From Escherichia phage JS10, in sequence record EU863409: DNA of 64,000 nt. One strand, written 5' to 3'. A program made the position numbers and the translations under genes. Shown piece after piece: positions 2,462-59,904 of the stretch. Each line of letters begins with the position of its first letter. The first letter of the stretch is position 1. The notes under the pieces are model-generated. The model was not told the origin of the DNA, ran no database searches, and saw only the letters and a program-made list of their open reading frames with translations.

Positions 2462-3055
2462 TTACTTAAGTGAATTAATGTAGTCGTCGATATCGGCAGA
2501 AGTCGTATCCATTCCAACTTGTGGGCCTTTAAACGTTTCTACACGTAGCAGGGTATCTTCAATATCAATCTTAGTCAGTGCAGCGATTTCAACCACATCA
2601 TCGGCAGTAGCAATACCAAGGGCAGCCATATTACGAGTTTCACGGATGTACTCGAGCTTAACAGCCAGTTCCTGACGAGAGTCATCAAGTTCCTTGACCT
2701 TCAGTTTAATTTCATTACGCATTTCGATATAATCGTCAGCTTTCTTACGAAGTTGAGTGGCTGTACGACGATAAAGGAGGCCGAGTTTAGCATGTACCTG
2801 AACATCGGCGCCTTCGGCAATCAGTTTACGAATTTCGCGTTCTTTAGAAGCAGCCAGTTGGTCTTTTTCATTTGCCAATGCACGAATGCGTTTTTCTTCA
2901 TTCACAGACTTAACATGAGCAGTCTGGAGTTCGGTAATTTTATCAATCAGGGTAGAAGCAGCTTTAGTATACTGGTCTTCGATTGACAGGTTCTGAGTCA
3001 TTGCGGTACCCAGTTTAGAACGGATGAACTCAACAATTTTCTTTAAAGTATTCAT
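2462..3055 (-). CDS. coiled-coil protein, possibly PspA/IM30-like
   Basis: About 198 aa from Met with SD GAAGGAAA; long charged heptad-like helical sequence; PspA resemblance is compositional only. Confidence 0.4.
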
Positions 3056-3098
3056 AGTATTTCCTTCAGTCGGTTGGTATTTTGTAATCCATGAGGAC

Positions 3099-3128
3099 AT
3101 TATACCCTGTCCTCTGAGGGTTGTAAAC
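3099..3128 (-). promoter_or_regulatory. sigma70-type early promoter (GTTTACA-N17-TATAAT)
   Basis: Minus-strand GTTTACA and TATAAT 17 nt apart, directly upstream of 2462-3055 gene. Confidence 0.5.
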
Positions 3129-3132
3129 ATTT

Positions 3133-3546
3133 TTATTTCATTTTGGCGAGGCAGATTTCATTGGCTTCCCATTGAGCTTGCTTAATAATAGCTTTGGATA
3201 CAGGAACCTTTTGACCATAAGTTTTTGACGTTGAGAGAACAATATATTTGTTTGCCTCATTATGCCAACCTAGTGATTTTTCACCATGACTACCTTTAAC
3301 CACAGCTGACACCTCAACAGAGCAACCACCATCAGAAATCTTGGTTTCTACAATCCATTCATTTCTCTCGGCAGCTTCAATTTCCGATCTCCTTTTTTCT
3401 TCATACATGGCGGCCCAATCAGTTTTTGCCAAGCTGAAAGTAAGAGCTTTCTCTAATTCTTTGGCAGCTTTTTGTTGTTCAGGCGTTAATGAATTGTACA
3501 ACTCTTGCATTTCTTTATCTTCGATATTCATTATGCTCTCCTTCAC
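3133..3546 (-). CDS. hypothetical protein
   Basis: 137-aa ORF with upstream early-type promoter. Confidence 0.45.
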
Positions 3547-3566
3547 TCCGTTGTTTTGATAGGTCT

Positions 3567-3595
3567 ATAGTATCATATTCTACGAAAGAGTAAAC
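3567..3595 (-). promoter_or_regulatory. early-type promoter GTTTAC-N17-TACTAT with conserved downstream element
   Basis: Minus strand GTTTAC...TACTATAGACCTATCAAAAC; copy of a recurring motif. Confidence 0.45.
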
Positions 3596-3619
3596 ATCTT
3601 TTTTAAACTTTTAGAAACA

Positions 3620-3646
3620 AAAAAGGCCCAACCTTTCGGAAGGGCC
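3620..3646 (-). terminator. rho-independent terminator, repeated element copy 1
   Basis: GGCCCAACCTTTCGGAAGGGCC hairpin followed by U-run on minus strand; 29-bp identical to copies at 4242-4269 and 51444-51471. Confidence 0.55.
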
Positions 3647-3651
3647 TCGAA

Positions 3652-4439: not shown

Positions 4440-4515
4440 TGGTCGAGACAGTAGGGATCGAACCTACGACCTACGGTTTAGAAGACCGTTGCTCTTCCTT
4501 CTGAGCTATGCCTCG
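4440..4515 (-). tRNA. tRNA-Arg (anticodon TCT)
   Basis: Manual cloverleaf: acceptor CGAGGCA/TGTCTCG, D-stem GCTC/GAGC, anticodon stem ACGGT/ACCGT with loop CTTCTAA, T-stem GTAGG/CCTAC, T-loop TTCGATC, encoded CCA; 76 nt. Confidence 0.85.
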
Positions 4516-4519
4516 TATT

Positions 4520-4594
4520 TGGCGGACATGCATGGATTCGAACCATGGACCAATTGATTAACAGTCAACTGCTCTACCACTGAGCTACACATCC
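4520..4594 (-). tRNA. tRNA-Asn (anticodon GTT)
   Basis: Manual cloverleaf: D-stem GCTC/GAGC, anticodon loop CTGTTAA, T-stem CATGG/CCATG, T-loop TTCGAAT, 3-prime GCCA; 75 nt. Confidence 0.85.
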
Positions 4595-4598
4595 AAAT

Positions 4599-4672
4599 TG
4601 GTGGCCCTGGGTGGAATCGAACCACCATCCAGCGATTATGAGTCGCTCGCTTGACCGTCCAGCTACAGGGCC
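4599..4672 (-). tRNA. tRNA-Met or tRNA-Ile2 (anticodon CAT)
   Basis: Manual cloverleaf: acceptor GGCCCTG/CAGGGCC, anticodon stem AGCGA/TCGCT with loop CTCATAA, T-stem GGTGG/CCACC, T-loop TTCGATT, ACCA end; 74 nt. Confidence 0.8.
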
Positions 4673-5837: not shown

Positions 5838-6239
5838 TTAACCCTCGTCTACAATAGTGTGGGTATTGGCATTAACAATCTGCCACCAGCCAAAACGATT
5901 GGAACCGTAAAGAGGTTTATTCTCGTTTTCTTTAATGATATCGCGCAGTTCATCTTCAGAGAAGGCTTTAGCGATTAAATCAGTATACCCACCACGTGGA
6001 TAATAATTATCACCCGCAAACAAAAGGAAATTTACCTTTCCGGAAGGAACATATGCTTCCTTAGGATACTTGTTTCCTGCGTGGTCGACAACTTCAATAT
6101 AACGGTAAGGAATATCAGTTCTTTCAACCCATTGCCATGCTGCTGCAGGGGATTCAAAAGCATCTACACCTAAACGGTTATCTTCATCTTTAGACGGATT
6201 ATTTTCGTAATCCGCATATACATAATATTCAACGTTCAT
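5838..6239 (-). CDS. hypothetical protein
   Basis: 133-aa ORF; start overlaps upstream stop. Confidence 0.5.
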   Translation of the reverse strand: MNVEYYVYADYENNPSKDEDNRLGVDAFESPAAAWQWVERTDIPYRYIEVVDHAGNKYPKEAYVPSGKVNFLLFAGDNYYPRGGYTDLIAKAFSEDELRDIIKENENKPLYGSNRFGWWQIVNANTHTIVDEG

Positions 6240-6424
6240 TATTCACCTTTAGAGATTTTATCCATAACAAAAGAGATTGAACCAATTAAGAATGCCACTA
6301 CTAAAGAGATTGTATTCTCGGAAGTTGTAAGCAAATCCAACATGAATCCTGCAAACATACTAAAGCCAAAAGCAGTAACGGCGGCCAGTGCAGTAACATT
6401 TCTAATTAATTCACAACGTTTCAT
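6239..6424 (-). CDS. small hydrophobic membrane protein
   Basis: Track ORF starts at TTG; ATG at 6424 preceded by GGAGAATAAA SD; hydrophobic helix. Confidence 0.4.
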   Translation of the reverse strand: MKRCELIRNVTALAAVTAFGFSMFAGFMLDLLTTSENTISLVVAFLIGSISFVMDKISKGE

Positions 6425-6460
6425 TTTATTCTCCAATCACTCATTTGTTTTGATAGGGCT

Positions 6461-6490
6461 ATAGTATCATCACTAAAGCCCGTTGTAAAC
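6461..6490 (-). promoter_or_regulatory. early-type promoter GTTTACA-N18-TACTAT with conserved downstream element
   Basis: Minus strand GTTTACA...TACTATAGCCCTATCAAAAC upstream of 6239-6424. Confidence 0.45.
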
Positions 6491-6492
6491 AC

Positions 6493-6786
6493 TTATTTTG
6501 TAATTTCTTTGATTTTAGAAACTACTTTATCTTTGGTAAGACCGGAAAAAGTCTTATATTTTGTAAAGTGGATATCATCACCAAGATTAATATAATATTT
6601 CTTTTTAACCGTATTGAATGCTATACTAACAGGTTTACCATTTACTGTAATAGTAATTTGCTGAGCCTTATCAACATCACCTGAGCCAAAGGCTCTTTTA
6701 ATATCGCTACTAATATCGGCCATAGCCGCTTTGTTAATGGAATACAAATCTGTCGATTCTTTGATAAATTCTTGATAAGTTTTCAT
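6493..6786 (-). CDS. internal-protein-like head protein with capsid targeting sequence
   Basis: Starts MKTYQEFIKE, resembling the T4 IP N-terminal CTS MKTYQEFIAE; IKE motif compatible with gp21 cleavage. Confidence 0.6.
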   Translation of the reverse strand: MKTYQEFIKESTDLYSINKAAMADISSDIKRAFGSGDVDKAQQITITVNGKPVSIAFNTVKKKYYINLGDDIHFTKYKTFSGLTKDKVVSKIKEITK

Positions 6787-6836
6787 TTTTTTGTTTCCGT
6801 TAGGTTGGGTTTGTTTTGATAGGTCTATAGTATCAT

Positions 6837-6865
6837 GCCTATAGACCTTGTAAACATCTTTTTAA
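6837..6865 (-). promoter_or_regulatory. early-type promoter GTTTACA-N17-TACTAT with 10-bp inverted repeat
   Basis: Minus strand GTTTACA AGGTCTATAG gcatgata CTATAGACCT ATCAAAAC; perfect palindrome across the -10 region. Confidence 0.45.
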
Positions 6866-6866
6866 A

Positions 6867-7780
<914 letters not shown>

Positions 7781-7788
<8 letters not shown>

Positions 7789-8542
7789 TTTTATTTCCTA
7801 ATAATTTATCAATAGTGGTGTATAGTTCAGAAAGAGTGCCGTTATTTTCAACAACAACGTCACCAGGTAAAATTGGTAGACCCGCTTCAGTGATGTGCGA
7901 GTCTTGTACTTGACCGGTTTCAGCGCGAACTACATGAATAATCGTAGCACCCATCGCTCTGAGCGAATCAATTTCATGTGTTTGACGAACATCAGGTACG
8001 ACATAGTATTTCGCATCAGAGTATATTTTATCAAAATAGTCTAAAGCGAACAACTTAACCCAATACATCTTATCAAATTGGTTAACAATAATATCAGTCC
8101 CAAGGGTCTGCATGAGACGACGTACTGACCAATTGTTATTTTTATTTATTACTTCAAATAGCCGGTCTTTTGTTTCTTCAGACAGATACTGGACCGGGGT
8201 AAGACCATAATGATATGCGGTAAGAACGTCAATTCCTGGAATAGGAAGGATATTATTCAGTTTAACAATAGCATGTTCAAAAATATCAACCACATCATAT
8301 GGTTTTAAAGGAAGGATTTCTTCACGGTCGTAACCGATACCTTCAAAACAGTTAAAATCAAGTTTAGGCATATAGATACGGTCGAATACAGGGTCATCAG
8401 ATATGTATTCATAAGCTTCAGCCAGATACTTTTTAATAGGACCAGCGAGTTGGAATTTTACGGAATCCATATTCTCAATTACATAGTTAGCAACGGTATC
8501 CTTACCGCTACGTTTGATTCCTACAATTGATATTAGTTTCAT
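7781..8542 (-). CDS. 1: gp1 deoxynucleoside monophosphate kinase
   Basis: P-loop GIKRSGKDT and MKLISIVG... N-terminus resemble T4 gp1; gene order 57A-1-3. Confidence 0.85.
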
Positions 8543-9132
8543 TATTTTCTCATAGATGGATGCATAGACATACGAGCCACACGTTGTTCGGCATACGAAT
8601 CAATTTGTGGACGACCTGTAACTATTGTACCATCTATTTCTACAGCAAACGATTTGAAGTTGAATGTTGCTGTAGCGATTATCGCAGGGTCGGAATCTTC
8701 TTTATAAGAGTACTGAATCTCGGAAAGGTCTGATGGCCAACCACCGTAGTAATGAATGCTCATTACGATTTTCTGTTTGTTGTTATCAAGAATGTGGAGG
8801 GTGATAGCCTCAGGCTGGCCTTTAGGATGCCAGGCTTCAGATTCATGTGTTACATAGTTGTTTAATGATAGCATCCATTTATAAACGTCCAGCCATGATT
8901 TCAATTCGCGGTCTACAAGAAAGTTCACAATCAAAGGGTCGAATTCTACAGTAGAACCTGGCAGTTTAGCACGGTTTATACCTTGGGTCGATCCTGGGAC
9001 GTCTGAGACCGGAATATGGATACCTGGTAGTGTTACATCTTGTACGTTCAATTTGAATGACTGCGTCATTCCTGAGTCACTAACCTCTAAGATAAAGTTG
9101 GTAGTGTTAGTTTGGTTAAATAAACCGTTCAT
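8542..9132 (-). CDS. 3: gp3 tail completion and sheath stabiliser
   Basis: Position between 1 and 2; start uncertain (Met at 9132 with AGGAAT SD, or 9069, giving about 176 aa as in T4). Confidence 0.65.
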   Translation of the reverse strand: MNGLFNQTNTTNFILEVSDSGMTQSFKLNVQDVTLPGIHIPVSDVPGSTQGINRAKLPGSTVEFDPLIVNFLVDRELKSWLDVYKWMLSLNNYVTHESEAWHPKGQPEAITLHILDNNKQKIVMSIHYYGGWPSDLSEIQYSYKEDSDPAIIATATFNFKSFAVEIDGTIVTGRPQIDSYAEQRVARMSMHPSMRK

Positions 9133-40915: not shown

Positions 40916-41182
40916 CTATGCAATCTTAACTCGACGGTTGATGATATCACGGAAGTCAATACGATTTTCTTGGATTTTCAGCCAGTTACCAGATTTGTCT
41001 TTGGTGTGGGTAGAGTATTCACCGTTCCACCAGAAGTCGGTTTCATAAGCCAGAGCTTCGTATTTCTTAACCAATGCATTAACTGCATTACCGTTAGGAT
41101 TGGTACCAAATTTTTCTACCAGAGCTTTGATGTCTTTGTCAAGGTTAGAAAGCGTGGTACGGATAAAGTTTAATTTGTTCAT
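40916..41182 (-). CDS. hypothetical protein, antisense gene between 23 and 24
   Basis: ORF on opposite strand with own early-type promoter and AGGAG SD at Met 41182 (track ORF starts 41197). Confidence 0.5.
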   Translation of the reverse strand: MNKLNFIRTTLSNLDKDIKALVEKFGTNPNGNAVNALVKKYEALAYETDFWWNGEYSTHTKDKSGNWLKIQENRIDFRDIINRRVKIA

Positions 41183-41211
41183 TTTTAATCTCCTCATGTT
41201 TTGATAGGTCT

Positions 41212-41241
41212 ATAGTAACACGTGGGAACCTTGCTGTAAAC
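41212..41241 (-). promoter_or_regulatory. early-type promoter GTTTACA-N18-TACTAT with conserved downstream element
   Basis: Minus strand GTTTACA...TACTATAGACCTATCAAAAC immediately upstream of 40916-41182. Confidence 0.45.
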
Positions 41242-59874: not shown

Positions 59875-59904
59875 ATAGTACCACATCCTTGTGGTGTTGT
59901 AAAC
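59875..59904 (-). promoter_or_regulatory. early-type promoter GTTTAC-N18-TACTAT
   Basis: Minus-strand hexamers with CCACA-nnnn-TGTGG hairpin in the spacer. Confidence 0.4.

Follow-up and report, generated by a model that had tools for sequence, protein, structure and literature searches.

The minus strand of the window (the whole 64-kb stretch of DNA analysed) carries, at 6827-6855, a promoter-like sequence followed by a start region that recurs elsewhere in the same DNA. An earlier note had described at least four such sites, in which GTTTAC and TACTAT are separated by 17 or 18 nt and followed by AG(A/C)CCTATCAAAAC, and had read them as early promoters whose conserved start region might be an operator or a translation/processing signal. 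What kind of promoter is this, and what are the start region and the inverted repeat that overlaps it likely to do?

Occurrence of the motif

A motif search across the window, the check that the earlier note had proposed, confirmed the four minus-strand sites. The 20-mer TACTATAG(A/C)CCTATCAAAAC was found exactly four times, always on the minus strand, at 3553-3572, 6447-6466, 6813-6832 and 41198-41217. Shuffled sequences gave a mean of 0.01 matches, and four copies were reached in 0 of 100 shuffles. The promoter pattern GTTTAC-N15-20-TACTAT was found at five sites (0.09 expected): 3567-3595, 6461-6490, 6827-6855, 41212-41241 and 59875-59904. In the first four the spacers are, in that order, 17, 18, 17 and 18 nt long, and the start region of the fifth, TACCTTACACAAAC, has diverged. 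Three of the four positions reported earlier were correct; the third site was placed 10 nt off and lies at 6827-6855, not at 6837-6865. The same shift affects the perfect 10-bp inverted repeat, which does exist but has its arms at 6839-6848 and 6821-6830 instead of within 6831-6858. The literal sequence of the motif had no match in the searched literature.

The predicted promoters are as follows.

3553-3595, minus strand: predicted early promoter module P1; -35 at 3590-3595, 17-nt spacer, -10 at 3567-3572
3553-3566, minus strand: P1 start region, AGACCTATCAAAAC; predicted +1 at 3560; serves a 132-aa ORF at 3133-3531
6447-6490, minus strand: predicted early promoter module P2, of trna.4; -35 at 6485-6490, 18-nt spacer, -10 at 6461-6466
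6447-6460, minus strand: P2 start region, AGCCCTATCAAAAC; predicted +1 at 6454
6813-6855, minus strand: predicted early promoter module P3; -35 GTTTAC at 6850-6855, 17-nt spacer, TGn, -10 TACTAT at 6827-6832
6813-6826, minus strand: P3 start region; discriminator AGACCT at 6821-6826, predicted +1 A at 6820, leader ATCAAAAC at 6813-6820
41198-41241, minus strand: predicted early promoter module P4; -35 at 41236-41241, 18-nt spacer, -10 at 41212-41217
41198-41211, minus strand: P4 start region, AGACCTATCAAAAC; predicted +1 at 41205
59875-59904, minus strand: P5, a related predicted early promoter; GTTTAC-N18-TACTAT, upstream of the alt.-3 orthologue
3093-3128, minus strand: P6, a related predicted early promoter; GTTTAC-N18-TATAAT, upstream of the e.6 orthologue

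Promoter activity and the position of +1 at these sites are what we infer from the consensus; +1 was assigned by counting 7 nt from the -10, which leads to the A of ATCAAAAC.

Identity of the window and local gene order

By its sequence the window comes from a T4-type phage, a Dhakavirus resembling JS98 and MN04. The region 6000-9000 has 97-98% nucleotide identity to Escherichia phages MN04 and JS98, both classified as Straboviridae, Tevenvirinae, Dhakavirus, and matches 657 T4-like records. Near P3 the genes run in the order 3, 1, 57A, 57B, a 69-aa ORF, a 97-aa ORF, trna.4, trna.3, trna.2 and tRNAs, which corresponds to the T4 order 57B-ipI-trna.4 (synteny). Two of these genes lie behind P3 and P2.

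6493-6786, minus strand: gene served by P3; 97 aa, starting MKTYQEFIKE; at the T4 ipI position, between 57B and trna.4
6239-6424, minus strand: trna.4 orthologue downstream of P2; 61 aa, MKRCELIRN...; phrog_1692, E 1.6e-33

The 97-aa ORF matched phrog_27873 in PHROGs (function unknown), and an internal head protein is annotated at its position in relatives. T4 internal proteins have MKTYQEFI(A/K)E as a capsid-targeting sequence at the N-terminus. For the ORFs downstream of the promoter sites PHROGs offered no functional assignment, and an Rfam scan of the whole window returned three tRNAs only, with zero matches at the promoters.

Genes in the right orientation are found 3' of all of P1-P4 (the ipI-position gene, trna.4, an orf133 homologue and an orf173 homologue), at a distance of about 15-35 nt from the conserved 14 nt to the Shine-Dalgarno sequence/ATG. 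The gene served by P4 is a small ORF between genes 23 and 24, the orthologue of JS98 orf173, with its likely ATG at 41180-41182. A terminator-like stem and T-run at about 3615-3650 precede P1.

Probable identity as early promoters

The reading of the four sites as early promoters, as the earlier note had it, is well supported by their agreement with the T-even consensus and by their position at early genes. T4 early promoters have been described as 'uber' UP/-35/TGn/-10 promoters with extra consensus regions (PMC2988021), the T-even early-promoter consensus is TTTACW-N17-TAYWAT (PMC4122927), and consensus logos are available for the early promoters of T4-like phages (PMC1524935). The window sites share with the T4 early promoter (Pe) the A/T tract, GTTTAC, the spacer of 17-18 nt, TGn, TAYWAT and the early-gene location. 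An A/T-rich, UP-like tract stands directly upstream of the -35 at each of the four (aaaataatttaaaaagat, aaattacaaaataagt, taaaagtttaaaaaagat and tttatttataaaagtt). TACTAT is preceded by TGA at three of P1-P4 and by TGT at one, and a promoter scan flagged the TG before the -10 at 6827 and 6461. The genes behind the sites are orthologues or positional equivalents of T4 early-region genes, with a Shine-Dalgarno sequence and ATG 20-35 nt downstream of the sites.

Individual T4 promoters can also be compared. The denV promoter of T4 has a letter-for-letter identical module from the -10 through the Shine-Dalgarno sequence. Those of ipI and trna.4 stand at positions orthologous to the window's and, with that of frd.1, carry TACCCTATCAAAAC-like variants of the module. 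The sites would thus be the sigma-70 'early' promoters of the JS98/Dhakavirus lineage, to be used by host RNA polymerase immediately after infection. An annotation can label them as early promoters that mark where early transcription units begin in a JS98-like phage.

Two other types of promoter were considered and rejected. A T4 middle promoter has a MotA box, TGCTTtA, centred at -30 and 11-13 nt before the -10 (spacing rule, PMC1524935). There is no TGCTT in the four window spacers, and the TGCTTTA found in the spacers of relatives ends 7 nt before TACTAT, not 11-13 nt. The string ...ACTATAG... suggested a promoter for a single-subunit T7/SP6-like polymerase, but the full sigma-70 -35/TGn/-10 geometry is present instead and no single-subunit RNA polymerase is annotated in JS98.

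The conserved start region

In the module the spacer ends with CATGA (TGn). From the position of the -10 we infer that the 'downstream element' is the discriminator (AGACCT) together with the first 8 transcribed nt (A at +1, then TCAAAAC).

The JS98 genome was assembled from four pieces and its minus strand was searched for early promoters with a pattern filter of our own making, which may admit false sites or miss real ones; 35 promoters were predicted. TATCAA occupies -1 to +5 in 19 of the 35. Copies of the 14-mer with 0-1 mismatch on the early-gene (minus) strand of JS98 all stand directly after a -10. A 30-nt probe matched 1019 phage records, most of them from T4-like phages that infect enterobacteria. 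It was found at 16-17 places per genome in Dhakavirus and at 1-10 in the other T4-like records listed, which come from phages of Escherichia, Shigella, Klebsiella, Enterobacter, Yersinia, Salmonella and Citrobacter.

The start region of T4 (78 kb scanned, 23 promoters) has the consensus ATAACT followed by ATCAACTA, a weaker version (…CTATCAAC…) of that in the JS98 lineage. Positions -6 to -1 hold 5.3 bits of information in JS98 and 2.4 bits in T4, and positions +1 to +8 hold 4.2 and 2.7 bits, respectively. TATCAA is at the start of 6 of the 23 scanned T4 early promoters. AGACCTATCAA is present in 12 of the 35 JS98 promoters, mostly with AAC or CTA next, but in only 1 of the 23 from T4, so the start is much more uniform in the JS98 lineage. 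A preference for C at -3 to -1 was reported by Nolan et al. for RB69, RB49 and 44RR (PMC1524935). As the start-region consensus is family-wide and weaker in T4, the 'downstream element' is a lineage-sharpened form of it.

Such a start region would favour initiation and would yield a G-poor, unstructured 5' leader. Its uniformity is probably due to selection for strong initiation and to recombination among promoter cassettes. Strong early promoters of phage T5 also have conserved downstream transcribed regions past +1, and these affect late steps of initiation. The window's modules may resemble them as very strong phage early promoters with common sequence past +1; the phage and the sequence are different. 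Matches to a 17-mer in non-T4 IMG/VR contigs (L056/L073/L018, L024/L013, L077, L059 and L020) were rejected: they are without promoter context, and by a rough estimate their number is about that expected by chance for an exact 17-mer in such a collection.

Hairpins overlapping the promoters

Two of the four window modules can form a significant hairpin.

6821-6848, minus strand: perfect 10-bp inverted repeat at P3; AGGTCTATAG at 6839-6848 and CTATAGACCT at 6821-6830, 8 nt between the arms
about 6456-6481, minus strand: P2 hairpin, GGGCU.UAGUG/GAUACUAUAGCCC

The 5' arm of the P3 palindrome lies within the spacer, and its 3' arm covers the final 4 nt of the -10 together with the discriminator. 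The corresponding read-through RNA (6784-6849) has a predicted folding energy of -16.2 kcal/mol (z = -6.5), and 0 of 200 shuffles were as stable. At P2 the fold of 6422-6484 has -13 kcal/mol (z -2.7), and the discriminator variant AGCCC is matched by a compensating GGGCT in the spacer arm. No significant hairpin was seen at P1 (3529-3589, z +0.65) or at P4 (41180-41235, z -0.30). With two of the four window sites unstructured, the hairpin is not obligatory in the module and cannot explain the conservation of the start region. The 10-bp palindrome itself is present at one of the four sites; many JS98 promoters have a different inverted repeat in the equivalent place. The related promoter P5 has a small hairpin, CCACA/TGTGG, within its spacer. 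In P6 the arms GAGGAC (3109-3114) and GTCCTC (3093-3098) bracket the -10; the architecture is the same, the sequence different.

The hairpins fall into two classes. In class A the spacer pairs with the end of the -10 and the discriminator, thereby bracketing the -10; the window hairpins at 6821-6848 and about 6456-6481 are of this type. Examples of its arms are AGGTCTATAG/CTATAGACCT, AAGGCTAT/ATAGCCTT, GGTACAGGT/ACCTGTACC and GGTAGGACT/AGTCCTACC, and further AGAGCC/GGCTCT and, at 3093-3114 of the window, GAGGAC/GTCCTC. In class B, which is found in relatives and at T4 denV, the part of the spacer just after the -35 pairs with the Shine-Dalgarno region; examples of the arms are TCTCCTGTAG/CTACAGGAGA, TCTCCATTAG/CTAATGGAGA, CTCCAGTAG/CTACTGGAG, TCTCCTCATG/CATGAGGAGA and TCTCCTCTGG/CCAGAGGAGA.

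Over the whole genome, pairing of this kind is significant in JS98 and in T4. When the spacer of each JS98 promoter was paired with the downstream region of the same promoter, the longest Watson-Crick stem averaged 6.66 bp, compared with 4.94 ± 0.22 when the partners are permuted (0 of 5000 permutations as high). In T4 the means are 6.61 for own partners and 4.66 ± 0.23 for permuted ones (again 0 of 5000). When read-through RNA of the JS98 promoters was folded, beginning where the -35 ends and stopping at the ATG, RNAfold z averaged -2.4, with z < -2 in 18 of the 35.

The arms covary. We aligned 16 class-B promoters, selected solely on where GGAG lies: 98% of the helix is paired, and 5 pairs are changed on both sides. 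This was reached by 0 of 500 shuffles, and slid controls gave 30-52%. The compensatory double changes are carried by five different arm haplotypes. Orthologous promoters can be compared as well: the arms at ipI are GATGAGGTA/TACCTCATC in T4 and AGGTCTATAG/CTATAGACCT in the window, different yet complementary, and those at trna.4 are AGGGT/ACCCT in T4 and GGGCT/AGCCC in the window. The inner TGATA/TATCA helix had zero variation in the class-B alignment and is neither supported nor refuted by it.

Does the helix form in DNA or in RNA? Within helices of at least 8 bp, the internal mismatches read on the sense strand were G·T/T·G in 28 cases and A·C/C·A in 2; the asymmetry comes partly from one recurrent motif, ATGGTA/TACTAT, and the independent cases number about 10 for G·T and 2 for A·C. 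Folding z is similar for the sense (-2.4) and antisense (-1.9) strands and does not discriminate between them. The mismatch spectrum alone discriminates the strand, and it favours a sense-strand RNA helix over a protein-bound DNA palindrome.

With its 5' arm upstream of +1, the helix is missing from the promoter's own transcript and would need read-through RNA started at a promoter further upstream. In such RNA the class-B Shine-Dalgarno sequence is predicted to be fully paired; no more than half of it is paired in the transcript of the promoter itself, and most own leaders across the promoter set fold at 0 to -2 kcal/mol. Pairing of the Shine-Dalgarno sequence with covariation was seen in relatives at denV, vs.4, dexA, ndd.4 and nrdC.8. 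At the four window sites this masking is absent, the Shine-Dalgarno sequence being unpaired or in weak, non-significant structure. It seems probable that the T-even promoter hairpins act in read-through RNA. That RNA would be attenuated, stabilised or translationally silenced at each cassette, and the cassette's own transcript would be open for ribosomes. The suggestion of a translation/processing signal is partly supported for the hairpins, through the covarying helix that buries the Shine-Dalgarno sequence in relatives, but not for the start region itself, to which the earlier note had attached it.

Comparison with known systems

PeSL (promoter-early stem-loop) cassettes have been described in RB49/phi1 and in T4/PST, and similar elements at T-even internal-protein loci ('IP-associated elements') are attributed to Repoila et al. 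1994 (both PMC2839356, PMC4122927). Formation of mini-circles by recombination, and attenuation or termination of upstream transcription by the stem-loop, are reported for RB49/phi1 only (PMC2839356). The sites in the window probably belong to this kind of cassette, which is a known type of element and not a new regulatory system. Both have an intergenic early promoter, followed by a Shine-Dalgarno sequence and ATG; a stem-loop between or overlapping the -35 and -10 is present at two of the four window sites. Both lie near variable small ORFs and internal-protein genes, with indel/exchange junctions inside the elements, and the stems are AT-rich, like those of the T-even type. There are differences. 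The published stem-loop is a terminator/attenuator and a recombination site, whereas the arms described here covary, show G·U on the sense strand and in one class pair with the Shine-Dalgarno sequence, suggesting that masking takes place in the RNA. A significant stem-loop is also missing from two of the four window modules. The step beyond the published element is incremental: the covariation and the sense-strand G·U bias, T4 included, argue for an RNA role in addition to that of DNA recombination sites.

T4 e, soc, 49, I-TevI and segB have a promoter inside an RBS-sequestering hairpin (PMC2988022). There the 5' arm is upstream of the internal promoter, so that long transcripts bury the Shine-Dalgarno sequence and the transcript from the internal promoter frees it. 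This geometry fits the class-B promoters of JS98 relatives and T4 denV. However, the internal promoter is late (or middle) and the genes are late in the known cases, whereas the promoter here is early, and the four window sites do not sequester the Shine-Dalgarno sequence. Class-B masking, with denV of T4 and of JS98 as examples, would do at an early promoter what the known hairpins do at the late promoters of T4 e, soc and I-TevI, a modest extension. If confirmed, it would refine the separation of immediate-early from delayed-early expression.

Alternative explanations

Taken as a whole, it is fairly probable that the sites are T-even sigma-70 early promoters with a start region inherent to the promoter and with hairpins that form in read-through RNA. 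The main competing view of the hairpins is the original one for PeSL, that they reduce upstream transcription as terminators/attenuators and insulate the cassettes, with no role in translation or stability. Arbiol et al. found that a PeSL stem-loop between a strong promoter and lacZ cut expression about as much as rrnB T1 (PMC2839356), and the window hairpin is stable, at -16.2 kcal/mol. Yet the window hairpins are followed by ATCAAAAC and not by a U-run, a terminator scan of the window listed zero terminators at these sites, and the promoter at 3567-3595 already has a separate terminator-like stem and T-run upstream. The class-B helices end on the Shine-Dalgarno sequence, for which translational masking is the better fit, and termination as the sole function is an unlikely, if respectable, explanation. 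A rather doubtful proposal is that ATCAA(AAC/CTA) acts as a signal in the 5' leader of its own transcript, in translation, through RNase E/G or RegB/S1, or in another 5'-end process. Conservation does extend 5-8 nt into the transcribed region (4.2 bits for +1 to +8 in JS98), hardly any structure is predicted for most own transcripts (0 to -2 kcal/mol), and the GGAG and A-rich tract after the leaders make up a RegB-type site in a lineage where JS98 has regB (PMC3014915). Set against this, the most conserved part, CCT at -3 to -1 (1.2-1.4 bits per position), is untranscribed, the distance from the motif to the Shine-Dalgarno sequence/ATG varies from about 15 to 35 nt, and Rfam gave no RNA family match at the region.

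Could nothing beyond the core promoter be functional, the downstream identity hitch-hiking on duplication or gene conversion and the palindromes being accidental? Promoter swapping and cassette indels are clear, and T4 recombination reportedly needs just short patches of homology (PMC2839356). But the start motif is kept across genera despite diverged flanks, stems with the own partner exceed permuted ones in both JS98 and T4 (0 of 5000 each), and there are compensatory double changes in five arm haplotypes, all of which makes this account improbable. The operator of the earlier note, with the palindrome or start region as the DNA site of a protein that represses or times early transcription, perhaps a shut-off factor, has in its favour a near-identical start region in many promoters that overlaps +1, the classic operator position, and small dyads in that region (CTATAG and TGATA-N9-TATCA). 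It would also supply a mechanism for the shut-off of T-even early promoters, a mechanism that reviews describe as unknown and as independent of AsiA and ModA (PMC2988021, PMC3014915). However, three of the four window sites lack the palindrome's 5' arm, and the AGGTCTATAG spacer arm occurs in 3 of the 35 JS98 promoters. With TATCAA at the start of 6 of the 23 scanned T4 promoters, the motif cannot explain global shut-off there, and zero candidate binding proteins were identified. Because the arms covary instead of staying conserved, and have G·U on one strand only, they point to RNA and not to protein-DNA recognition; the operator is not supported and must be considered very improbable. Highly speculative, and hardly to be expected, is a combination in which -6 to +8 (AGACCT followed by ATCAAAAC or ATCAACTA) is a DNA or nascent-5'-end site of the shut-off function and the hairpins tie translation to the gene's own promoter. 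If it were true, promoter shut-off would silence the gene despite continuing read-through RNA.

Recombination among cassettes

Frequent homologous recombination between promoter cassettes, as in the PeSL model, probably keeps the copies near-identical, to judge from exchanges visible between related genomes. The JS98 nrdC.8 promoter carries the spacer of the ndd.4 promoter, with a resulting mismatch, and three relatives keep the compensated CTCCAGTAG arm. The gene MAKVNIDI... has at least five different promoter spacers among phages. At 3543-3619 the window has 77 bp with one promoter module in place of a 1088-bp JS98 segment comprising the orf133 promoter, e.8 and orf135 (an internal-protein-like gene, MKTYNEF...). 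The window leader here is of the e.8 type up to GGAGAG and of the orf133 type from CATAATG, which puts the junction within the Shine-Dalgarno sequence of the cassette. The use of cassettes as recombination points explains differences in small ORFs and internal-protein genes between close relatives; at the internal-protein locus the window has a single gene and IME281 a pair of internal-protein genes.

Comparison of the window with JS98, a closely related T4-type phage of the genus Dhakavirus, showed that a segment of 1088 bp in JS98 has been swapped for a short promoter module. Features noted in the window are:

3543-3619: promoter module of 77 bp, in the place of JS98 68298-69385
~3615-3650, minus strand: terminator-like element, GGCCCTTCC-GAAA-GGTTGGGCC followed by TTTTTT
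4443-4672, minus strand: tRNA genes for Arg, Asn and Met (identities from the JS98 annotation)
6493-7076: internal-protein locus, flanked by 57B and trna.4

The JS98 segment contains the orf133 promoter, e.8 and orf135, the last encoding an internal-protein-like product with the N-terminus MKTYNEF, and no homologue of e.8 or orf135 was found in the 64 kb of the window. One junction of the replacement falls within a Shine-Dalgarno sequence, the leader there being of the e.8 type through GGAGAG and of the orf133 type from CATAATG. The terminator-like element lies immediately 5′ of the early promoter at 3567-3595 on the minus strand, and the two form a composite terminator/promoter; a simple terminator scan did not list the element.

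The internal-protein locus holds a single gene, encoding a 97-aa protein that begins MKTYQEFIKE, and a 69-aa ORF (6867-7076), whereas two internal-protein genes lie between 57B and trna.4 in IME281, a relative. This interval is without annotation in the JS98 RefSeq record. The three tRNA genes lie downstream of the trna.2-4 genes.

Many of the Shine-Dalgarno regions that follow the modules read GGAGA(T/A)(T/A)AAAATG (e.g. window 41183-41195, and after JS98 promoters). A GGAG with an A-rich tract behind it is the sort of sequence that the RegB endoribonuclease cleaves (PMC3014915), and JS98 has a regB gene. Where the promoter spacer pairs with the Shine-Dalgarno sequence of the next gene in read-through RNA (class B), the pairing would conceal the leader GGAG of such sites.

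The starts that mechanical ORF calling sets at 3130 and 41197 extend the reading frames upstream, in frame, through a promoter or Shine-Dalgarno sequence. The real starts are likely to be the ATG codons at 3053-3055, which agrees with JS98 e.6 (197 aa), and at 41180-41182, respectively.

The exact 17-mer TACTATAGACCTATCAA also occurs in three related non-T4 IMG/VR contigs, L056 (96 kb), L073 (59 kb) and L018 (11 kb). Its setting there is different (…CCCCATA-TACTATAGACCTATCAA-CAGCAGACC…) and no GTTTAC -35 element is found at these copies; given the length of the 17-mer and the size of the collection, this is probably a chance match.

Inverted repeats overlapping promoters are also present at T4's own early promoters (NC_000866 positions 20612, 57990, 65413, 65799 and 73939; loci L082/L084), with arms such as GACAAGACT/AGTCTTGTC and TGACAAGATT/AATCTTGTCA. 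For denV, the full TCTCCTGTAG/CTACAGGAGA helix is predicted to mask the Shine-Dalgarno sequence, and the ipII promoter has a 13-bp inverted repeat, CCTAGAATTGTGA/TCACAATTCTAGG.
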